DNA of 20,000 bases, taken from positions 1,288,164 through 1,308,163 of the forward strand of contig MU004231.1 of NCBI GenBank assembly GCA_010405405.1, given 5' to 3'. The DNA comes from Microthyrium microscopicum. Taxonomy: Eukaryota. The notes below the pieces were generated by a model that worked only from the letters and a program-made list of their open reading frames with translations, was not told the DNA's origin and made no database searches. Below are positions 6,877 through 20,000 of the stretch, in pieces. Each line of letters begins with the position of its first letter. The stretch's first letter is position 1. The position numbers were made by a program, and so were the translations under genes.

Positions 6877-8658
6877 TAAGAAATTTATTAATAAAAGGTT
6901 TATTTATATATAAGATTAAGATTATATCTTAACCTTTATTATTTATAGAATAGTTAATAGCTAAATTACTAACCTATAGTCCTTAGTACTATATAGACCT
7001 AATAGCGTAGACTATATCTAAAAGTATAGAAATAGGTAAGATCTTAACTTACTTTAATTATTAAGATATACGTTATATAGCTAAATTAAGTACGTCTTCT
7101 ATATTTGATTCATATCTTCTTGTCCTCTAAATTCCACGACGTACATTTAAACGCACGGTGGAAGCGCTAGCCTATTTGGAGGTTCACACATAAACAACGC
7201 GACCAAAGGTCCGGCGAATAATACACATGCCAGTGCTTCTTTTCTCCACTTCCATACTTCAATATCAAATGATCCACCTCCTACGCTAAAGTTAAATGGA
7301 CAGAGGCTAGAGTGCTAGCAGCCGTACCCTTGGGACAGTGGTCATACATCTGACAGTCGATATTGCCAGCGTAAAGCTACATAAGAAACCGGCTGCCTCT
7401 GAGCTTCAACCTGAGCGCCTTAAGCTTTCAACTCAGAAATTTGAATCAAGAACTTTCTAATGGCTAAAAAGCAATGGCTGGAGTTGAACGCCACAATCGC
7501 GTAGTCCCCGCTATTTTTAAGAGCCGCATACCTCAACGGGCTATAATTAGTTTAGTTACTGGAGAAAGAGAAGAAGCCTTCTCTTGAGCAATAGTAGGCA
7601 TTGTGAGAGGAATGTTGATAGGTCAAGTTTTCGCTTTGGATAACTTACTTCAGGTTTGATACTTCCTCATGGACTGGTTACAAGCACACAAGCATGACTG
7701 ATTGATCGTGAAATGCAAGCGGGCAAACGAATCAATGGGCTTCAAGCCGACTGCGACCCTGGCGCTAGGAACACAACCTCGCGATGCAACCATCTTTCGC
7801 TCGCCAAGCCTTTTCCAACTTCAACTTCAACTTCACCACTCCCGTCACTAGCACTATCAGGTCTCTGCAAACTAACCCAAAGATACGACTGGTATCAAAT
7901 CTGTAGCTACCTGACTGGTATCTTCTTATCCTGCTAGCATTTAATGCCACGGTAACTAGGTACATACACCCTCTAGAGTCTAGCTCTTGATGATACTGCA
8001 CAATCGGGCAGTTGACTACCACAACCTTGCCATCAGAATAGCGGATATCGTCGGAAGAAAGATATCACAATCCACTGCTACACATCCCAGCAACACATCT
8101 ATCATGATCAGAGAAACATAGCGATCACTTCGTCACTTTGCATCTCCAACGAGGGTCAATACCCCTCCAGTGGAAATCTCGTGGAGATCCCAGAAGCTTG
8201 TTCGGGCCTGTCAAGCGCGAATGTTTAGCAAGTCCACCCATGATACGACCTTCTCGTAGCATGTGTGTTCAAAGCTACCCCATGTGCAACTCTCAGCCTT
8301 GTCCCAGTATCAATGTAGGCATAAAAAACTTTCTTCCACTATAGCTTCTGTAACACCGAGTCATCACCACTTTTCTTGCCTGTGCTAGTATCGATGAGTC
8401 TGATTTGCCTCTTGTGACGACCGATTGGAGACCTTGCTAGGACTTTGTCAAACGCTCGCTAGGTCATTCCATGGCAAGTTACTGCCTACCGCTTGGGGAG
8501 GGAGCTTGTTGGATGGTATATATCGAGTGGTGTCATCAATAGTAGACAAGATATGGAGACAAGAAACCTAAACTTCTACATTGCTCGATAACCCCTGAGC
8601 CAAGATAGAATTTACAACACCATCATCAAACTTACACCCTTCCTATATCCCAAGCAAA

Positions 8659-9911
8659 ATGTATGCTACCCTCTCCTCCCTATAGCCAACCAGCTAACCA
8701 CAACCAGGCGTCTCGTCGTACGTGATAACCAAGCCACCGCATCTGAATATGTAGCCGAATACATCATCCGTAAGTTCCTCCCAGCAACACCATTCCCACC
8801 ACAACCTTTCTCCTAAAAACATCCAGAGCGCATCAACGCCTTCGCCCCAACCGCCACCCGCCCTTTTGTTCTCGGCCTTCCCACCGGCTCCTCCCCCCAA
8901 CAAGTCTACGCCATCCTCGTCGCCGCCTTCCGCGAAAAGCGCATCAGCTTCAAACATGTAATCACCTTCAACATGGACGAGTACGTCGGACTACCTTCAG
9001 CCCACCCACAGTCCTACCACACTTTCATGTACAACCACCTCTTCAGCCACATTGACATCGACCCTTCCAACGTGCACATACTCGACGGCAACGCACCAGA
9101 TCTAGAGAGTGAGTGCGCAGCCTACGAAGCAGCGATTCGCAAGGCTGGCGGAATCGAGCTGTTTCTAGGCGGCATTGGGCCAGATGGACATGTGGCGTTC
9201 AACGAGCCTGGGAGTTCGTTGAATAGTCGCACACGCGTCAAGACACTGGCGTATGATACGATTCTGGCGAATAGTCGGTTCTTTGGAGATGATTTGGGGA
9301 AAGTGCCGCGGATGGCATTGACGGTTGGTGTTGCGACGGTTTTAGCGGTAAGTTTCGCACATTACTGCAGATCTGTCAAAACCTTTTAGGCTAATTGGTG
9401 CATTTAGGCCAAGGAGGTTGTCATCATCATCACTGGCGCCCACAAAGCTCTTGCGCTGCAAAAATGCATCGAGGGCCCGGTCAACCACATGTGGACGCTG
9501 AGTAGCTTGCAAATGCACCAACATGCGCTCATTGTGGTCGATGAGGATGCTACGCTCGAGCTGCAGGTTAAGACTGTCAAGTATTTCAAGAGCATTGAGG
9601 GAGTGGCCAAGGAGTGCGGCTATGACCAGATGGTGCCAAGTGAAATCGCTCGCCAGAACGCAGAGCGCGCTGCGGAGGAGGCGGAGATGAAGGCGCTGCT
9701 TGAGTCCAAAGGCAATGGAACCAAGGCAAACGGTGCCAATGGCGGATTGATGGTGAATGGCACTCCTCAGAGAGCGGTTACGCCAGATATCATTCCTGAT
9801 CGCATGAGTTCGCGCATTAGCGACCCACCGATCCCAGAGGGCATGATGAAGGAAAATGGCGAGCTGAAGATGTCAAATATGCACTCTCGTATGCCAGTGC
9901 CAGCTTATTAG
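8659..9911 (+). CDS. NAG1: Glucosamine-6-phosphate deaminase (isomerase), 362 aa; exons 8659-8660, 8708-8769, 8827-9347, 9408-9911
   Basis: Spliced translation [27 protein letters not shown]...[11 protein letters not shown]...[12 protein letters not shown]...[26 protein letters not shown]...[25 protein letters not shown]...[12 protein letters not shown] carries the NagB/GNPDA signature motifs. Three GT..AG introns (47, 57, 60 nt), with CTAAC/CTAAT branch sites in introns 1 and 3, restore one continuous frame. Confidence 0.96.
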
Positions 9912-10619
9912 GAAGTAGCTGGCTTTCGGAATAGCGATGAGGATAATGATAGAAAATAATGGCGCTAATGGGGCATTCATTCTTTGGTATAGCAGTCCGT
10001 CTCTAATCACATATAGAAATTGATTGTCAAGGCGAGGAAGCACTGTATTCATGGTAAGTAGATCTAGATATTTTTAAATAGGCTCTTAGTCCTTATCAAA
10101 GAGAGCAATTTCTGATCAAAGTCGTGGTAGCTGTATGGAGTTTAATTGAGAAAGAATATGTAATACGGCCCAGGTGTCCGTCCCGCACTCTTGCAAAGAC
10201 TTTCGCAAGCGGTGTTAATATATGCCCTTATCATCGCCAAGTTCTATTCGGCCACCGGGCTTCCTTACTGTCAGTTCTCTAGTCGAATCCATCAGACTGG
10301 AACGATGTTGCACGTTCCACTTCTCACTATACAGGAAACTTGTAGATCAACTATAGGGGCTTGTACCTTTCTTGACTATCTCGGCCTAATCTCGTTGCTA
10401 TTCTGGTGATCGGAGATTTGCGCCTGATAACATGATATCATACGGAATGTTAGATTAAAATCTGGCGTGATGTTGAGATTTTATCATCACTCCAATGTCC
10501 ATAGAAAATAGAAATCATTACTTGGCCATATAATGCCCAGATACTACCATCTCATAACACCGTTTGCATCCTGATCGTCAAGAAACAACGCTCCGGAGAT
10601 CAAAACTCTTCGTGTCAAG

Positions 10620-11695
10620 ATGCAGTTATTTTTACACCTTGCTCTGGCAACCTTTGTGGTAGCACAATCAGAGCCGCTCGCTGCCATTACACCTCCGAAG
10701 GGTACTCAAGCAACGAACCTTCCAGCTCTTGGACTGGGAACATGGTACGCAAAGGGTAGCAATGCCACGGCCGCTGTCGCTCAAGCTATCGTTGACGGCT
10801 ACCGGCTCATTGATACATCTCCCTTCTACAACAATCAAAAAGAAGTAGGCGCAGGTGTCAGAGAGGGCATCAAAAGAGCTGGAATTAGCAGACAAGACGT
10901 ATGGGTAACAAGTAAACTTTGGACTACAAAGTAAGGACTCTTTGCTATCCATTGATTACCTAATATAGAATGTGCTAACATATACGATCAGACATTCTGA
11001 CCCCAACGGTGGTCTCAAAGAGACACTGGCTGAATTAGGACTCGATTATGTTGATCTCTGGTTGATACACTGGCCAATGGGTCCTGGAAATACTTTTGAC
11101 CATGTTCCTGTGAGTCTGAACAGAATATCTTTTGTGATCTTGCTAATTTGCTTGTCAGACATGGCAAAAGATGGAAAAGCTTCCCGCCACAAAAATGACA
11201 CGATACATTGGAATATCGAACTTCAGTCCAGCACAAGTAAAAGACGTTCTTAAAGTGGCTACTATCAAGCCAAAGGTCATGCAAATCGAACTGCATCCGT
11301 ATCTTCCACAGGAAGACTTCGTTGCCTCGCTCCAGAAACAAGGAATTACCGTCAACGCTTATGCCCCTTTGGGGAATACGAACCCGGCATACAAGAGTAG
11401 TGCCACTAAGCTACTACAGCATTCTACTATTCGGTCAATCGCATCCGCAAGGGGATGTACTCCGGCTCAAGTTGTGCTTGCATGGAATATGAAGCGCAGT
11501 GTCGTTGTTATCCCAAAGGCTGTGCAGATTGCGCATCAAAAAGAGAACATTGCAACTCCTGCCTGTGCTGCCAAGTTGACTGCAGAGGACTTGGAAAAGA
11601 TTGCACAGATATCTAATCCTCCGCATAGATTCATGAGCTCGCCCTGTGCTTCGAACCAGTTCAAATGCTTCGAAGGTACCACGAAGGGCTTTTAG
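10620..11695 (+). CDS. Aldo-keto reductase with predicted N-terminal signal peptide, 321 aa; exons 10620-10930, 10992-11109, 11159-11695
   Basis: AKR motifs LPALGLGTW, GYRLIDTSPFY (D65, Y70), VWVTSKLW (K99), LGLDYVDLWLIHWP (H130), IGISNFS, QIELHPYL, AYAPLG, TPAQVVLAW, VIPKA, ENI. Introns are GTAAGG..GCTAAC..CAG (61 nt) and GTGAGT..GCTAAT..CAG (49 nt). Hydrophobic N-terminus MQLFLHLALATFVVA-Q. Confidence 0.94.
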
Positions 11696-13209
11696 CCGCT
11701 ATGTCTAAAACCTTTTGCGAAAAGACAAAATCTAAGAATTTAATGATTCCAAATGGCTGCTGCAAAACTCATGGTCAACCATCCAAATTTCGAACAACCT
11801 TGTGCTAAATCTATTCTCGTCAACTCTAAGTTTAGACACCAGAGAGACTTCATGCCAAAGAGGTCTTGGTATTCATGACAGCTTGGTATGTTTTGATTTG
11901 GTCCAAATTTAACAACTTACAGTGCAAAATGAAACCCTTCAGACTGTCATCTAACAGCAAGTCAAAAGCTAAGAAGTCGAACATTCAATAAGTAAGCTAT
12001 ATCACATAGGCGACAATGATCGAAATAGCCATGAGACAAGCTTTTCCAAGAGGATTGTTTGAATTGTGCCAAGATCAATGAGAGTTATTTTTATCAATTT
12101 CAAGTGTTTTCAGAGATCTATTCGCACTCATTGAACCTGTTCGTGTCAGTTGTCAACATTACCAGGAGAAAACCATCAAAAGTGTTCCTTTCTTGGCCAG
12201 AAACGCGACATCTCTTAGCATAAAAGTTTGCAAGACAGAATATGTATATCACCCAAATTATTATTGTTTCCTCGGCCAAGATCTAGACCTTGAATCGCCT
12301 CACGGAGAGAAATCTGTACATGGCGTTGAAACCCCTTGCGGTTTCAGGGTGCAAAAAGATGCAGCTATAACCACTCTGTACTAAGAGATAATAGAACGGC
12401 TCTCTATCTCAACGGGATCTTGTTAAGATATCCTCCTTGTTCTGGAAGTATTGGCGTAGTTGAAGTTGTCACGGCCGAAAACAAGTTCATATTATCCTGA
12501 TTATATCGCCGTCGTCTCAAAATAGTACTTACTAAACGCAGATTGAAATGCACAACGACTTTCTAAGTTTACTTAGAATTATCTACTGCTGAAAGGTAAG
12601 ATAGATATGATAGGGTGTCTTGTGGCAGTACATTAAATGTTCTCTTTTGGACTTGTATGTAGATCTTATGTTACTCAACTGCGACTAGATATCGTCGGTC
12701 GTCTGTGCTGCCTCGTGGTATAGGTGATCTTTCATAGTTGACAGGTTCGGATTGGATAGCCGCACGAAGCGTGGGTTGCCCGTGCATGGAATAATAGATC
12801 CCATCGATCTTACCCGGTTGTTCCTGGGACGCCCTCCGCTCATGATAATGCAGGTCACAGACGAGACCAATAGCCTGCATCCATACTGCATGTTGTAAAC
12901 AAACAGCTTCAAACCCTGAGGGTATTAGATCTTGTAACAATCAAGCCAACCAGCAAGAATCTGGCGAGTCTAATATTATGCAAACGAACAACATGATCTG
13001 ATCGCAGCCAAGCAGTTTATGTTCCATCTGTAAAAGTCTTGGGACACTTGGAAATACATAAAGGCAGCAATCGCGGCCATGTCAACATATTTTCAACAAC
13101 ACAGTTCATCCAAACATTCAGTCTTTTACATTCCATTCTTTTGAGCAGGCCTCCTAATTCAACTACTACTTTCACTTACAACCAAAAATCAACCAACAAA
13201 ATCATCAAC

Positions 13210-13614
13210 ATGAAGCTCATCACTCTCCTCACCATCGCCTTCGCCGGCTTTGTTATGGCCACCCCAGTTGCCGAGCCAGTTGCTGAGGCCGGTCTCATGG
13301 ACTCCATCACTGCTAAGCTTCCTCACTCTTTGACCGCCACCGACCGTATCATGACCCCCGGTGCACCAACTGAGCAGCTTGTCACCCGTCAAGGTTAGTA
13401 CAGTCCAGCGGCTCCCAAGTATCAACACTAATGAAGTCTTACAGCCAAGGCTAAGAAGGCAAAGAAAGCCAAGAAGGCTAAGAAGGCAAAGAAGGCAAAG
13501 AAGGCAAAGAAGGCCAAGAAGGCTAAGAAGGTATGATAGTTCATACATTACATCCACGTCTCAACTTTTCTAACTCATCATCAGGCCAAGAAGGCAAAGA
13601 AGGCTGCTGCTTAA
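13210..13614 (+). CDS. Small secreted pre-pro-protein (99 aa) with a C-terminal (AKK)11 polycationic repeat; exons 13210-13393, 13445-13530, 13585-13614
   Basis: Start context ATCAACATG after an A/C-rich leader; signal peptide MKLITLLTIAFAGFVMA-TP. Introns GTTAGT..ACTAAT..CAG (13394-13444) and GTATGA..TCTAAC..CAG (13531-13584) join in frame to give ...EQLVTR-QAK(AKK)11AAA* with TAA at 13612-13614. Confidence 0.88.
13450..13602 (+). repeat. Coding 9-bp tandem repeat GCNAAGAAR (Ala-Lys-Lys), 9 units in exon 2 and 2 units in exon 3, interrupted by an intron
   Basis: Units differ only at synonymous third positions (GCT/GCA/GCC; one AAA for AAG). Confidence 0.92.
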
Positions 13615-13755
13615 ATGCAAGACCTGAAAATGGAGTAACCACCTCAAGGTGCTCGGTGTTCGCGATCATATGTAAATAACGTGGATCTGGCAGCAGTAAA
13701 CAAGAAATTAAAGTCCTTTTCGGTCAAGCATTGCTTATTACTTTTCATCGTGTGC

Positions 13756-14575
13756 TTAGCCAGGGTATCTCATTCGATTCGATCCGGAATGGCCACCTCT
13801 ATTTCCTCGTGGCATGTTCTTGCCGTTTCGAGGAGCTCTAGGGCAGTCATTTCTCATATGGCCTGGTTGGTTGCATATGAAACACTTTCTGACCGGAGCT
13901 TTAGTGCCACCACCGGCTGAAATACTTCCAAACGTGATTCCATCATCGATTGGTCTAGAAGGTGTGGTTTTTGCTGCGGCAGCTTGGCCTTGTGCTAAGA
14001 GTTGATCAACGCTAGATGGGTCATAATCTTCTTCATCATCTTCGCTGTCTTCCTCATCCGAGTTTTCAGACGGGCGCGGTTTATCTGCTGAATCAGTTGT
14101 CAGAGGCTACATCGCTGTTAGTAAACAGCATGTTGAACCACATAAACCGGAATCATCGGCTCCTGTCACGAACCTTGCCAAACCTCATGCGGCTATCTGG
14201 CTTGTCGGCAGCATCTTCATCGCTTGACGCATCAATATCTGCAAACCCAGCCGTGGCGATGCTCAGCGCCGTGGCAGGCGTAGCATCTGCCTGCTGTATG
14301 CTTAGCACCCACTTGGTCTCGCCCTTCTCCGCTGCCTGACGCTCAAGCGCTTGTTCTCTCTTGGTTTCTTCTTCAGCCAGCGCATCGTTCATGGTCTTCA
14401 AGTCTGAAGTTGAATGACGGGGTGCGCTTGAGCCGTTTGACATGCGTTGACGTTTGGAAGGCGGCGAGTCGGTGGAAGATGCTGCAGCGCGCTGCATAAA
14501 CTGCATGTATTGTTAGGTGACAGCTGAATGATTTGAGCCCTAACTAACCTTCATGGTTAAAAGTCGCGACGACAT
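13756..14575 (-). CDS. MPP6: Mpp6 (M-phase phosphoprotein 6)-like nuclear exosome cofactor with C-terminal CCHC zinc knuckle, 234 aa; exons 14575-14549, 14500-14174, 14106-13756
   Basis: The spliced N-terminus MSSRLLTMKFMQRAAA resembles the Mpp6 L..MKFMQR motif. It also has KWVL, GFADID, RMRFGK, an acidic tract, then CFICNQPGHMRNDC (Cx2Cx4Hx4C) and an RG-rich tail. Introns are GTTAGT..CCTAAC..CAG (48 nt) and GTTCGT..ACTAAC..TAG (67 nt). The family assignment is from motif recall, not a search. Confidence 0.78.
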
Positions 14576-14870
14576 TTTGGCGGAGTTGTGTTTCTAGCCG
14601 CTTCTGAGCAAAAGAACAAGGCTGATATGGTATTTTTCTGTAATTCTGCGGCTTCGCTTTCATAAAAAATCACGCAAAAGATTAACGACAGCGCAGACTC
14701 GCAGATGGATCAAGAATTGTAAGTGGTGAAACATTCATGTGCAGCAGGACATTGGCATTGAAGTTGAGGTTCAGAATCAAAAAGTCTTGTCGGCCCGAGA
14801 TTGATCCCATAGATTATCAATCGGGGTTCTGATATAATGGCGCATTACTACCAACCCTGCTTAAGATAAG

Positions 14871-14955
14871 AACTTCTAAACTTCTAAACTTCTAAACACG
14901 TTACTATATTACTATATTAGCAACGTTACCCTATTACTATATTACTATATTACCC
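14871..14955. repeat. Short tandem repeats at the left edge of the right-hand AT block: (AACTTCTA)3 then two clusters of an 8-bp TTACTATA-type unit; candidate subterminal repeats
   Basis: aacttctaaacttctaaacttctaaac; acgttactatattactatattagc; aacgttaccctattactatattactatattaccc. They coincide with the GC-to-AT transition. Confidence 0.75.
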
Positions 14956-15259
14956 TTTAATCTCTAGAGCTCTAGATTATTAATTATAAATAATTATAAT
15001 TCTACCTTACTACTTAAAAGTTATTATATTTATATTAGGATATATCTTTCTAATAAGTTAATATAGTTATATATATATTATATAATAATTAGTAGAAAAT
15101 ATAAAGTATAAAATATATAAATAATTACTAAATATAAGTTTATATTACTATTTAATAAATAAGTATATATATATATATCTATCTAAACTAATTAAGTATT
15201 TATCTCTTTCTTAGAGTTATTCTTTATACTTTTTACCTTATTACTTTATTTATAATAAA

Positions 15260-17031
15260 ATACTAAGCTTTACTTCTATTAATTTAGAGTTCTATTAAGA
15301 TAAGATTAAAAATCTTATTATAAGATAGTTTTTTACTTATTTAAAAGTTATATATTAGCTAAAAGAAAACTATAATATTAATATTATACTAAGTATATTA
15401 CGTTAAAAAATTAAGTAATAAAAGATTTAACGCTTTATAGCTTCTTTATTAGAGCGTTATAAAAAGCTTAAGAAAATAATAAAATTCTTATTTTATAATA
15501 AGAATAGTAATAAAGATAAAATACTCTTTATTCTTTAAATTATAAAATATTTAATAACTATATAAACTTTCTAGCGTTATTAATAAAAGCTTAGTCTTAA
15601 ATACTACTATAAGTTTATATTAAATAAAGATTTTATAATAGCTTACTACTAAAATAAAGTAATAGTTCTAGCTAAGCTTTATAGGGCTTATTTATTAGTA
15701 TTATTATATAGCTATTAAGCTCTAGCTATTAGACTTTATAAATATAGATACCTAATTCTAAAAGCCTAGATTAATTAAATTTAATAAGATTTAGATTTTA
15801 TTAATATATAAGCTTACTAAAAATAAAAATATTAAAAATATAGCAAATATAAGACTAAAGGCTTAAACTATATCTAGTTAATTAATAAGTATAATAAACT
15901 TAAAAAAGTAGGAATTAAAATTTATAGCTATATTAATACCTACTTATAAAATATAATCTAGTATTATATTAATATATTAAATACTATAAATATAAGTTAT
16001 TTATATTAGTACTTAGATTAGTTAACTATTAATTCTATAATTTCTTAGTTTATTTGCTTAGATTAAGAAGATAAAACTATAATGCTTACTAACGCTTATT
16101 ATAAGTTTATAAAGGCTTTAAAGTATAGAATTTCTTTCTTAGATTATTATTTATATAAGACTAATATTATAAATTAGAGAATTAAGCGCTAATAAGGAAG
16201 CCTTAGTAAATTAATATTAACTAAATAGTAAGTAAATTATATAACTATATATACTTAAGAGTTAGTACTAATATAATAATCTATTAGATATTTTTTAATA
16301 GGCTAGTTAATAAGAGTTCTTATTTAAAAGATAAACTTAAGAATTAAATTATAATACTAGCTATTTACTTTCCTATTTTATAACGTATAATAAAGAAATT
16401 TATTAATGACTAGAATAACTATAAGATTATTAATAATAAGAAAAAGTAACTATATATAATAAATAGTAAACTTTAGTATCTATATACTCTTCCTTAAAAA
16501 GTATAAGATATAGGCCTAGTTACTAATCTAGTAGTACTTTAAGCTAAGAAAGTAATAGTAAGAAATTAGAATAAGAATACTTTTTTACTACTTAATATAC
16601 TTTAATAGTATAATAAAAAGCTAAATATAATAAAATTTAATCTTAATAGTAATCCTTTTAAAATAGAAGAGAATTAGTATAACCTAATAAATTTATATCT
16701 TAGTTATTATTTCTACTTATAAGAAGTAATTAGTTACTATATAGTATTAGATAATGCCTTAATTCTAGCTACTTTTAAAAATCCTTAAGATAATAAAGCT
16801 TAAATTAGAAATTACTTAAACTACTTTATAGTTTAGGAAATATAAAGAGCTATAAATAAAGATAATAGAGATAATAATATTATAAAGTTCTAAGCTACTA
16901 TAAAATATATAAAACTTAGCTATCTTAATAATAATTAATTAAGAAATAATTCTAATATTAATTTAATTAAAGAAGAGGAAATTTAAGCTAGTAATATAGA
17001 AAGTAAGAATAATATAGAAAAGAAGCTTTAG
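15260..17031 (+). pseudogene. Transposase relic with IS3/IS481-like integrase core and a relic intron (16232-16287)
   Basis: De-RIPed reading in one frame from 15260 (ATA, formerly ATG): ..IDLE.Y.D.I..L; 15860 GPNYIWSIDG[YH]DKLKKVGIEIYGCIDAYSRNIIWYY; ~16050 FIRSDRG.ET; ~16172 NQRIERWW. After GTAAAT..TACTAAT..TAG the frame continues LAIYFPIL...FIDDWNNHKI and remains in register to TAG at 17029-17031. Confidence 0.82.
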
Positions 17032-17189
17032 TTTATATTTAGGCATTCTAATTAATAATAATAATTTATAATAATTTTATATACTTTAATTACTTTTTAA
17101 AACCTTACTATATTAGTAAAGCTTAATACTATAAGGTATATTATTAGATAAATAGTATATTCTCTTTATATTAAGTAGTTAAAGATTTC

Positions 17190-17237
17190 TAAGTCTCTTA
17201 AGTCTCTTAAATTTCTTAAATCTCTTAAGTCTCTTAA
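17190..17237. repeat. 9-bp tandem repeat (TAAGTCTCT-like) x5
   Basis: taagtctct taagtctct taaatttct taaatctct taagtctct; the period of 9 is compatible with a former coding tripeptide repeat. Confidence 0.8.
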
Positions 17238-20000
17238 AAAGAATAATATAGATATTACTTAAATTTTTAGTTTCTTTCTTTATTCTTAATAATATTAATA
17301 ATAGAGTAAAAGCCTATAGTAGTATTAGGTTTAGTACTCTTAAATACCTATCTTATTATTATAAATAGCGTATAAATTAATTATAATTAGATAATTAAAA
17401 TATAATACTTAAAGTACTAGGCGCTTATAGATATATCTTTTAAAAAAGTTATTCTTATATCTTTAGTTATATCTATTAACCTATAAGAGCTTAAGCAAAG
17501 ATAGATAAAAGATAACCTAAAGCTTTATATATTACTACTACTAGTACTATATATAATTAAAAACCTAGATAATATAATTAAAGTTTCTAACTCTAAAATA
17601 TTATTATAACTATAGTAATATATTAAATAAGAGCTTTCTTTTATTAAGATAGAGGAATATAATAATATTTTATTATAAAATCTAAGTAATGAAAGAACTC
17701 TAAATAATTTTATTAAAGCGTAATATAGTTAAAAAAGCTACTAAAACTATATAAAATATAGATTAATAAACGCTATAATAAAGCTAGATCCTATTATATA
17801 AAAGATTTAATAAAGTATATTAGTAATTTCTATAAAAAAAAGGTATAAGATTCTATTAAAATATAAGTATAAAAACTTACTTTAGTTTAGTTCTTAAAAT
17901 AACCTTAGTATAAATAGAATAAAAAGTAGAGATTTATTTTTATATTATTAACTATAAAACGTAAAGTAACTATATATAATTTAACTTTATTAAAGAATAT
18001 TATAAGTAGCCTAGTTATTAGAATAGCTTATACTAATGTATATAATAGCTTTAGTAAATATAGACCTTTTTTAAAGTAACGTTAAGAGTATTTAAGACTT
18101 TATTTATAAATACCTAACTTTTTATTTAGATAATATAGTACTTATTAATTATAATAAAGTCTTTACCTATAGTAAAAATATTTAAAACGTTAAACTTATT
18201 AATAAAATTAAACTAAGTAAAGGACCTATAGGTTATATATTTTTAAAGAATAAAAAGGGTAAGGCTTTAAGCTTTCTCTTAAAGTAAGGAGAGCCTTCTA
18301 AGATTAGTCTTATTAGTAGAATATATAATGTTATTAAGCTAGCTAGTATTATTATAAATAAGTTTATTAAAAGAGCTATCTTTAATATTAATAAAAAAAG
18401 TTAATTATAAATTTATTTAATTATATATAAGTATTAGAAAATTATTCTAAACTTTAATTCTAATATATTTACTTTATTAGCGTCTATCTTAAAGACTTTA
18501 AAGGTACTTATTCTAAAGACCTTAAAAATATACTAATAGCTATCTTTAGAATAAACTCCTTTAAGACTTAGGTTAAGTAAAGCTATTAAAGCTAATCTAA
18601 GTATTTAAGTAAAGCTTAAGAAAGTTAAGCTTAATATAGACGTTCTTAAGAAAATAAAAGCTACTATACTAAAAGCTAAGTAAATTATAAAGAATTTATA
18701 AATAGTAAAGAATCTAGTAGAGAATAAAAGTAGATAAGGCCCTAAGTCTACTATAAATAATAAGAATAATAGCCCTAATAATAAGAAAAAAGCTATAGCT
18801 AGTAATAAAGATAATAATTCTAATATCTTATTGCTATTATTAAGGACGTTATTCTAGTAATTAAGAAAGAAGAAAGCTACTAAAAAAGAGAAAGAAGCTA
18901 CTACTATTAAGTAAGAGAAGAAAACTACTAAATAAGATATATAAAAGTAAGCTATATTTTAGGTTAAGCTATTAAAGAATAACGTATCTACTTACGCTTT
19001 TTAATCTTATAAAATAGTACTTACTTTAGTAGATAAATAAGTAGCTATAGCTATTAAAGTAGATATTCTTAAAGTAGCTAAGGCTAATATAATAGTAAAG
19101 AAGTATAAAAGATATAGAAGAAAGGGTATAGAACGTAGATATAGAAATAAAAAGTAAAATAGCGCTACTTAGTTATATTAAAAGGCTATTTAGATATTTC
19201 TACTTATTTAATACTTATTATAATTTTATTATACTTATTCTATTCTTTTTCTTATTAATTTTTAAATAATTAAGGTAGCGTTAACTTATTAATAATTACT
19301 TAGTAAATATTTTCTTTATAAACTTAATAAGAGTTTTATATATAATAGATATAATATTATCTTAATTTAGTAAAGAGGCTAATAAAACCTATAACTACTA
19401 CTAGCTTATTATTTCTAATTCTATTACTAAAGTTACTAACTTAAAAAAAATATATTAAATACTTAGCTAAAAAATAAAGAGTAAGCGTAGAGAACTTATT
19501 AAGATTCTCTTCTAATAATAATGTTATAACTAGGATTAAGCTATATTTAGTAAGTAGATCCTACGTTAAGCCTACTAAATTATAAGCTACTTATAACTTA
19601 ACTAGACTTTAATAAACTTTAGTTTCTTAAAATAATTATTCCTTAAAGTTAATTAAGTAATTTTTTATTAAGCTTTAAGTATTATGCTCTTTATATATAA
19701 ACTTTAAACTTAAATAGAACTAAATCTTAAAAAGAGCTAACGCTTTTTCTAAAATAGGATTAACTAATCTAATAATATATTCTTATATAAGTATTATATA
19801 TATATTATAAAAGAATAAGTAACTAGCTTATTAAACTATTATACTTCTTCTTTATTTTATTAAATTAATACCCTTATAATACTTAAGTAGTTTATTAACT
19901 TATAAGTTAAACCTAAATAAACGTTAGTAAGTATAATAATTAATATAATTTATTAAGTAGAAGTTATAAAACGTAGTATAAAAAACTACTATATAAAGAT

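Follow-up and report, generated by a model that had tools for sequence, protein, structure and literature searches.

Can a short tandem repeat at the end of a small fungal gene encode a genuine secreted product, and what would a peptide built almost entirely of lysine and alanine do outside the cell? This question is raised by a locus in a 20,000-nucleotide stretch of the Microthyrium microscopicum genome (assembly GCA_010405405.1, contig MU004231.1, positions 1,288,164 to 1,308,163; hereafter the window, with coordinates counted from its position 1). We found that the locus holds a real, expressed and twice-spliced gene of a filamentous ascomycete. In agreement with an initial interpretation made from the DNA letters (the sequence-only reading), two canonical introns interrupt the gene, and its spliced coding sequence of 300 nucleotides specifies 99 amino acids plus a stop codon. 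These comprise a predicted signal peptide of 17 residues, a pro-region of 43 residues ending in LVTR, and a 39-residue tail, QAK(AKK)11AAA, with 23 lysines, 15 alanines, one glutamine, and neither acidic residues nor cysteine.

The coordinates of the gene and of its neighbours are collected in Table 1. The start codon is the first ATG of the open frame and carries an A at position −3, and the boundary between exon 1 and intron 1 reads CAA G/GTTAGT. A 9-nucleotide tandem repeat of 9.4 copies occupies positions 13447 to 13531. If intron 1 were kept, translation would stop after LVTRQG, and if intron 2 were kept, it would stop after nine AKK units and a valine. It had also been claimed that the list of open reading frames (ORFs) misses the tail frame entirely. 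This holds at the usual length, because the pieces of that frame are only 33 and 24 amino acids long, but at a threshold of 20 amino acids they are listed. A 123-amino-acid ORF on the minus strand (13189 to 13560) was considered and rejected: it lies antisense to the repeat, and it is on the plus strand that the introns have GT..AG ends.

Table 1. Features of the lysine-rich peptide gene and of the neighbouring genes (window coordinates).
Feature	Position	Strand	Details
Exon 1	13210..13393	+	From the ATG through predicted signal peptide, pro-region and LVTR to Gln61 and base 1 of codon 62
Predicted signal peptide, residues 1-17	13210..13260	+	MK, 15-residue hydrophobic core, V-M-A before the cut; read from sequence
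Pro-region, residues 18-60 (43 residues)	13261..13389	+	Net charge about −2.5; contains the conserved L-P-H motif
Five in-register X-Pro/X-Ala dipeptides (TP VA EP VA EA)	13261..13290	+	Partly a 12-nucleotide tandem repeat (13264-13287)
LVTR, candidate Kex2-type site (extended L-x-x-R motif)	13378..13389	+	Residues 57-60 of 99
Intron 1	13394..13444	+	51 nucleotides, GT..AG, phase 1, CTAAT branch-like site
Exon 2	13445..13530	+	Bases 2-3 of Ala62, one Lys, nine AKK units
Intron 2	13531..13584	+	54 nucleotides, GTATGA..CAG, phase 0, CTAAC branch-like site; at a repeat-unit boundary
Exon 3	13585..13614	+	Two AKK units, AAA, TAA stop (13612-13614); covered by X1 contig record 4
Glucosamine-6-phosphate deaminase gene	8000-9965	+	Introns 8661-8707, 8770-8826, 9347-9406; one RNA contig of 2024 nucleotides
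Aldo-keto reductase gene (PF00248, E 1e-19)	~10620-11695	+	Exon 1 opens with a signal-peptide-like stretch; thin RNA cover
CCHC zinc-knuckle / MPP6-like gene, convergent	within 13583-14716	−	Introns 14107-14173, 14501-14548

Evidence for transcription came from the contigs of one public run, X1, laid on positions 8000 to 15000. Of the 18 contigs placed there, 14 agree with the window to 99% or more. The record of the run does not state RNA, and we treated X1 as complementary DNA because of its intron-like joints and because no contig covers the intergenic stretch 11744 to 12913. Seven such joints were found across three genes, all GT..AG or CT..AC; three lie in the glucosamine-6-phosphate deaminase gene (47, 57 and 60 nucleotides) and two in the zinc-knuckle gene (67 and 48 nucleotides). 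In the case of the peptide gene, a contig with a depth of 607 skips intron 1 (joint 13391 to 13443, which with the cut moved by two positions is 13393/13445), and contig record 4, with a depth of 165, skips intron 2 (joint 13528 to 13583, likewise 13530/13585). These are the two junctions that the sequence-only reading had predicted, so that the gene is transcribed and spliced as proposed, at least as far as such contigs can tell: they would not reveal rare intron-retaining forms or the spliced share. Exon 1, the sole part of the gene with detectable homologues, is also present in X1 contigs. Separately, loose contig ends at 13468, 13471 and 13504 have AAG/GCC-rich words in common with the repeat and lead on into other lysine-rich coding sequence, and we therefore conclude that the same organism has other lysine-rich transcripts.

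The repeat varies only in ways that leave the peptide unchanged. Wherever the 11 AKK units differ, they do so at a synonymous third position: at position 3 of the unit, five have A, three T and three C, and at position 9 ten have G and one has A. Replacement changes are absent. By our own arithmetic, only 5 of the 27 single-base changes possible in a GCA-AAG-AAG unit are silent, and all-silent variation is therefore unlikely in the absence of selection on the peptide (about 0.006 for three independent events).

We next describe the tail as it would appear after cleavage at LVTR. Its computed mass is 4160.3 Da, or 4143.2 Da with an N-terminal pyroglutamate, which is below the mass of about 4.3 kDa given earlier. 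It has an isoelectric point (pI) of 11.3, a charge of approximately +22.7 (about +23) and a mean hydrophobicity of −0.67; the whole product without its signal peptide has 82 residues, a mass of 8.6 kDa and a pI of 10.7. The hydrophobic moment of the tail is 0.08 at 100 degrees and 0.02 at 180 degrees, and is high only at 120 degrees (0.71), so that the three-residue repeat is the sole periodicity and no amphipathic helix or strand is expected. At a helical moment of 0.08 the tail has no hydrophobic face, the feature by which amphipathic alpha-helical antimicrobial peptides are recognised, and we ruled out an amphipathic lytic helix. Membrane permeabilisation, which had been proposed for the peptide at the outset alongside the killing of microbes, the binding of DNA and the masking of pectin, is thus disfavoured in this form, and the mean hydrophobicity points the same way. 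We also rejected a signal for retrieval to the endoplasmic reticulum (ER). The motif for such retrieval is a C-terminal KKXX, whereas this protein lacks a membrane span and has its last lysines at −4 and −5.

Searches with exon 1 placed the gene in a family. Among 1.84 billion representatives, phmmer returned three matches at E ≤ 0.001, the best of which (P0001) had an E-value of 5e-11 and 64% identity. Of 496 candidates, 19 matched a profile made of these three and the window protein at E ≤ 0.01 (E 1e-31 to 5e-10), and a 20-sequence profile matched 20 proteins at E ≤ 0.01, five of them new, among 8000 candidates scored. P0001, P0002 and P0012 did not come up again with the second profile, probably owing to the limit on candidates. 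Taken together, the phmmer search and the two profile searches yielded at least 24 distinct proteins (P0001 to P0024), to which the counts below refer. They are 64 to 153 amino acids long, none of the 24 has a Pfam family, and identity in the leader ranges from 33 to 64% across the family. A single relative comes from an annotated genome, namely P0016, which NCBI lists as 'hypothetical protein FKW77_002132 [Venturia effusa]'; the other 23 are from ENA, Logan or JGI contigs.

What these proteins share is mainly the leader. A signal-peptide layout ending in A/V-x-A was found in 23 of the 24 relatives (P0019 begins inside the signal peptide), and all 25 members, the window protein included, contain four to seven in-register X-Pro/X-Ala dipeptides. 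In the 20-sequence alignment A3, the invariant columns are A17, P19, L37, P38, H39, P53, L57 and R60. The L-P-H motif, which reads KLPH in the window protein, is among them, and is lacking in the shorter P0024, a relative outside that alignment. All 24 relatives carry the cleavage-type site, L[VI][TSA]K?R (LVTKR in P0021), and in 20 of them the next residue is glutamine. The suggestion that LVTR followed by glutamine is a maturation-type site therefore fits the family well. KR or RR occurs in the leaders of 18 relatives and is absent from the window protein; its placement varies, before or after the L-P-H module or, in P0021, as the site itself, and differs between clades. As an observation of its own, P0010 carries two L-P-H modules with KR between them, a small leader duplication resembling the Kex2-processed repeat proteins (KEPs) discussed below, which no other member has.

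Downstream of the site the sequences diverge in composition but keep a lysine-rich character. An N-x-T sequon lies no more than 10 residues past the site in 19 of the 24 relatives, followed by sequence rich in Ala/Lys, Gly/Lys or Thr/Lys; a sequon so placed agrees with a protein that travels through the ER and whose mature part begins at the site. Long tails can be read in four relatives, and these contain 14 to 23 lysines plus arginines and zero or one acidic residue. In most relatives, among P0003 to P0023, the ORF turns into unrelated residues right after K-K-G (G-M, G-K-S, G-E-F, G-L-F). At the protein level, this switch is what one would expect of callers reading into a phase-1 intron with a start such as GTATG, GTAAGT, GTGAGT or GTTTGT, and the entries are probably truncated models. 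On these sequence features, the family is a conserved and unnamed one, defined by a leader with L-P-H and L-x-x-R and by a lysine-rich tail, and the window protein has all three. Its gene is thus, by the same comparison, an extreme member of a family and not a one-off invention, with a tail that starts directly at the predicted site.

The family did not surface elsewhere. When metagenome contigs were scanned with alignment A1, 586 patterns matched, and with alignment A2 491, and no locus was confirmed in either scan; a word-indexed single-sequence search with exon 1 gave no candidate. Inside the window we found no paralogues (29 tblastn matches, of which the eight outside the gene all had E ≥ 0.4). 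A Pfam search with exon 1 hit zero families, a PDB profile search returned nothing below E 0.1 (best E 0.11), and ESM Atlas feature matches of 0.81 and 0.80 were at chance level. A small, non-exhaustive set of literature word searches, which excluded the supplementary tables of the KEP surveys, retrieved no description. The null results in Pfam, PDB profiles and the literature are in line with the earlier statement that this is not a recognised family.

Structure prediction separated the two parts of the protein in a similar manner. With the family alignment, AF2 modelled exon 1 as a helix at residues 2 to 17 (the signal peptide), a short helix at 29 to 36 and otherwise coil (mean pLDDT 65), the pro-region being mostly coil with a pLDDT of about 54 to 69, and the Atlas model of the full-length Venturia relative had a pLDDT of 0.39. 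In view of these models, the conserved leader has the look of a processing piece, and the variable tails, predicted to be disordered in the relatives, have that of a payload.

In the accessible text of PMC8528282, fungal effectors are described whose disordered N-terminal pro-domains are removed by Kex2, and the search motif used for the protease is KR, RR or an extended LxxR, with an aliphatic residue at P4, an invariant arginine at P1 and a tolerant P2; LVTR matches the extended form. According to the part of PMC6339444 that is available, Kex2 sites are KR, RR and to a lesser extent KK, and Ste13 removes repeated XA or XP dipeptides. The putative signal peptide has the usual n/h/c layout and obeys the −3/−1 rule (V-x-A), both read from the sequence and conserved in relatives. 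By its layout, then, the window protein is a predicted pre-pro-protein of the Kex2 type, in whose family the leader is conserved and the polycationic payload varies.

From this we propose the following route. The protein very likely enters the ER, where signal peptidase would cut after V-M-A. In the Golgi, a Kex2-type convertase would probably cut after LVTR and a Ste13-type dipeptidyl aminopeptidase trim the pro-piece. This would free the 39-residue QAK(AKK)11AAA, a 4.16 kDa peptide with a charge of about +23 and perhaps an N-terminal pyroglutamate. The freed polycation would then, in our estimate with about the same likelihood as the convertase step, bind extracellular anionic polymers by multivalent electrostatics, the type of action expected of a peptide that has no hydrophobic face. 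Its preferred target may be the negatively charged wall and matrix of the fungus itself, together with the surfaces that these contact, and binding there could mask charge, aid adhesion or give protection from cationic antifungal proteins. We place the producer's own wall first because a +23 peptide must cross that wall, because the tails of the relatives resemble glycosylated hydrophilic spacers and not lytic peptides, and because fungi already use extracellular polycations for adhesion; cationic extracellular polymers such as deacetylated galactosaminogalactan and chitosan have a part in fungal adhesion in the accessible text of PMC4817252, PMC6307706 and PMC4912089. As a whole, the function that we favour, although tentatively and at somewhat less than even chances, is that of a secreted polycation with the anionic polymers of wall, matrix or surfaces as its extracellular binding partners.

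Several points weigh against this proposal. Secretion, cleavage and the free peptide are predicted from the layout of the sequence. The P2 residue of LVTR is threonine and not lysine or arginine, so that cutting by Kex2 rests on the extended motif only. The net charge of the pro-region, about −2.5, is too small to neutralise a +23 tail. Nothing singles out the fungus's own wall over other cells; a GPI signal, a PIR motif and a Ser/Thr-rich region are all absent. With 59% lysine, compared with 17 to 27% in relatives, and without the N-x-T sequon common to most of them, the tail of the window protein may behave unlike the rest of the family. In addition, 20 of the 24 relatives are contig ORFs that seemingly enter introns, and their readable tails are thus partial. 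The expression evidence is a single RNA run in the form of contigs, and both intron retention and the conditions of expression are beyond its reach. Finally, a conserved leader joined to a variable cationic payload is a hallmark of animal antimicrobial-peptide precursors.

The last point leads to the main rival of wall and matrix binding, namely that the peptide is a gene-encoded, polylysine-like antimicrobial directed against competing bacteria or fungi, which adsorbs to anionic envelopes in the way of alpha- or epsilon-polylysine and is held harmless during export by its acidic leader. Animal host-defence peptide precursors evolve with a conserved cassette and a variable cationic payload, and here too the pre-pro cassette is kept while the cationic C-terminal part varies. 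Leaders made of X-Pro/X-Ala dipeptides, as in this family, are also known from insect cationic peptide precursors. A tail with a charge of about +23 and no acidic residue would suit such a role, and the accessible text of PMC7179176 reports epsilon-poly-L-lysine of non-ribosomal origin as an antimicrobial secreted by an Epichloe endophyte. On the other hand, the tail has no amphipathic face (moment 0.08, mean hydrophobicity −0.67), the net charge of the leader is far below that needed to mask it, and the peptide would first have to get past the anionic wall of its producer. The tails of the relatives, which are Gly/Asn/Ala-rich at their lower lysine content, carry in 19 of 24 cases an N-glycosylation sequon, unusual for antimicrobial peptides. 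We therefore consider this explanation possible but distinctly less probable than the binding of wall and matrix polymers. Its wider form is slightly more doubtful still: filamentous ascomycetes would possess a family of defence peptides that are encoded by genes, lack cysteine and resemble polylysine, with a conserved cassette (signal peptide, dipeptidyl-peptidase leader, L-x-x-R convertase site) and a fast-evolving polycationic payload, which gene finders overlook because the genes are small, intron-split and of low complexity. Such genes would run parallel to those of amphibian and insect antimicrobial peptides and would give epsilon-polylysine a ribosomal counterpart.

Two further alternatives shift the activity away from a free tail, and we regard both as unlikely. 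LVTR may not be cut at all, in which case the 82-residue, 8.6 kDa protein would be the working form, with an active L-P-H region and the lysine tail as an ionic anchor to the wall or a substrate. Threonine at P2 makes a weak Kex2 context, the N-terminal region with L37, P38 and H39 invariant in 20 sequences is the conserved part, and the pI of 10.7 would agree with anchoring. Yet the leucine and arginine of L-x-x-R are invariant as well, one relative has LVTKR at this place, glutamine comes next in 20 of 24, and a conserved region modelled as coil (pLDDT about 54 to 69) suits a pro-piece better than a domain. Alternatively, the active products would be short leader peptides around L-P-H, similar to signals or pheromones, and the lysine tail a carrier, a processing handle or waste. 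KR stands directly before or after the L-P-H module in 17 of the 24 relatives and splits the two modules of P0010, and the leader has the Ste13-type signature, which in the accessible part of PMC6339444 is linked to signalling peptides. The window protein, however, has neither KR nor RR, the position of KR differs by clade, and the tail is kept lysine-rich and acid-poor across the family, with only synonymous variation in the repeat; waste would not be so constrained.

An equally improbable explanation is that of a host-directed effector, in which the lysine tail would bring the secreted peptide into plant or other eukaryotic cells, their nucleus or nucleolus, and bind nucleic acids like a histone H1 tail. 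Within the tail, K-(K/R)-x-(K/R), which we take to be the classical monopartite nuclear-localisation consensus, occurs 10 times in overlapping copies. We know of no uptake motif for such peptides, and this counts against the explanation. The sole named relative is from a plant pathogen, Venturia effusa, and in EffectorP 3.0, as far as the accessible text of 10.1101/2021.07.28.454080 goes, C-terminal lysine enrichment is the most discriminating feature of cytoplasmic effectors. But the gene lies in a small island with housekeeping genes (glucosamine-6-phosphate deaminase and CCHC zinc-knuckle), and run X1 carries no sign of a host. Lastly, it is very improbable that the tail is a microsatellite-like expansion that is transcribed but has no function and sits at the end of a small gene in decay: a 9-nucleotide tandem array is indeed prone to expand, but the differences between units are all synonymous, both introns are spliced in frame, and lysine-rich tails recur in a family whose leaders are only 33 to 64% identical.

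With regard to the genomic setting, the gene is part of an island some 8 kb long (roughly 7000 to 14900), which has a G+C content of 45% and lies between flanks of 22% (1 to ~7000) and 18% (~14900 to 20000). The flanks carry strong signatures of repeat-induced point mutation (RIP), with TpA/ApT ratios of 1.66 and 1.58 and (CpA+TpG)/(ApC+GpT) ratios of 0.08 and 0.04, which point to a filamentous ascomycete that has RIP. The opening of the aldo-keto reductase gene suggests, from its sequence, that this enzyme may be secreted or targeted to the ER. We rejected a cluster for a ribosomally synthesised and post-translationally modified peptide, as the island holds the deaminase, the aldo-keto reductase and the zinc-knuckle gene and no peptide-tailoring enzymes. 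At the 3' end of the peptide gene, one RNA contig (13583 to 14716) joins its last exons to the convergent zinc-knuckle gene, and the 3' ends of the two genes therefore abut or overlap.

Should the predicted peptide indeed be made, fungi would have a polylysine-like polymer of ribosomal origin that arises by ordinary secretory processing. In limited, non-exhaustive word searches we found no fungal ribosomal polylysine-like product in print. Going by sequence, the predicted payload is an unprecedented Lys/Ala polycation on a convertase-processed secretory precursor of known type, in a family that is conserved but unannotated. The family also exposes a blind spot of annotation: among billions of predicted proteins, it is represented by one entry from an annotated genome and otherwise mostly by ORFs cut short where they apparently enter introns. 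The conserved leader offers a search handle for more such payloads in fungal genomes, and the peptide is short enough for direct synthesis, whether it proves to be a surface-charge modulator, an adhesive or an antimicrobial.

Among known systems, the closest layout is that of the Kex2-processed pro-domain (K2PP) effectors of plant-pathogenic fungi (PMC8528282, accessible text), which have a signal peptide, in the window protein a predicted one, and a disordered N-terminal pro-domain with KR, RR or LxxR at its end. The features by which that source defines the group, a disordered pro-domain in the first half of the protein ending in LxxR, are found here in LVTR at residues 57 to 60 of 99 and in the coil of pLDDT 54 to 69. 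K2PP effectors, however, release folded and mostly cysteine-containing proteins, whereas the release predicted here is that of a cysteine-free, disordered Lys/Ala polycation, and in our family it is the leader that is conserved and not the mature part. The KEPs and the alpha-factor-type precursors are likewise secretory and have a Ste13-type X-Ala/X-Pro signature (PMC6339444 and PMC7329392, accessible text), and some relatives share with them KR-flanked modules. In KEPs, as far as PMC6339444 describes them, peptide cores lie between KR or RR and less often KK sites, whereas the repeats of the window protein contain only KK, and its Ste13 signature follows the signal peptide and not a Kex2 site. 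We therefore rejected a KEP precursor: the protein has no KR or RR and falls outside the definition, as cores delimited by KK would consist of a single alanine.

The precursors of promelittin, cecropins, dermaseptins and cathelicidins share the general plan of a conserved signal and acidic pro-piece, built from X-Pro/X-Ala in insects, followed by a variable cationic C-terminal peptide. Those peptides are amphipathic and without sequence relationship to ours, whereas the window tail has a moment of 0.08 and most relatives carry an N-glycosylation sequon. The C-terminal tails of histone H1 resemble the window tail in being Lys/Ala-rich, disordered and polyanion-binding. Histone H1 itself, unlike the window protein with its predicted signal peptide and lack of a Pfam domain, is nuclear and has a winged-helix globular domain, and we rejected a linker histone or histone-like nuclear protein on the zero Pfam families in exon 1 and the predicted signal peptide at the start. 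In chemistry, the nearest counterpart is the epsilon-poly-L-lysine of Streptomyces and Epichloe (PMC7179176, accessible text), a secreted microbial polylysine-type polycation of about 25 to 35 residues, in one case fungal. It is made by a non-ribosomal synthetase with epsilon-linkages, whereas the window peptide would be made on the ribosome as an alpha-peptide, with alanines as spacers and a leader for processing. In function, the proposed analogy is with deacetylated galactosaminogalactan and chitosan, extracellular polycations that mediate adhesion to anionic surfaces (PMC4817252, PMC6307706 and PMC4912089, accessible text); these are polysaccharides and not peptides, and the likeness would be one of function only, a secreted polycation holding on to anionic polymers outside the cell.

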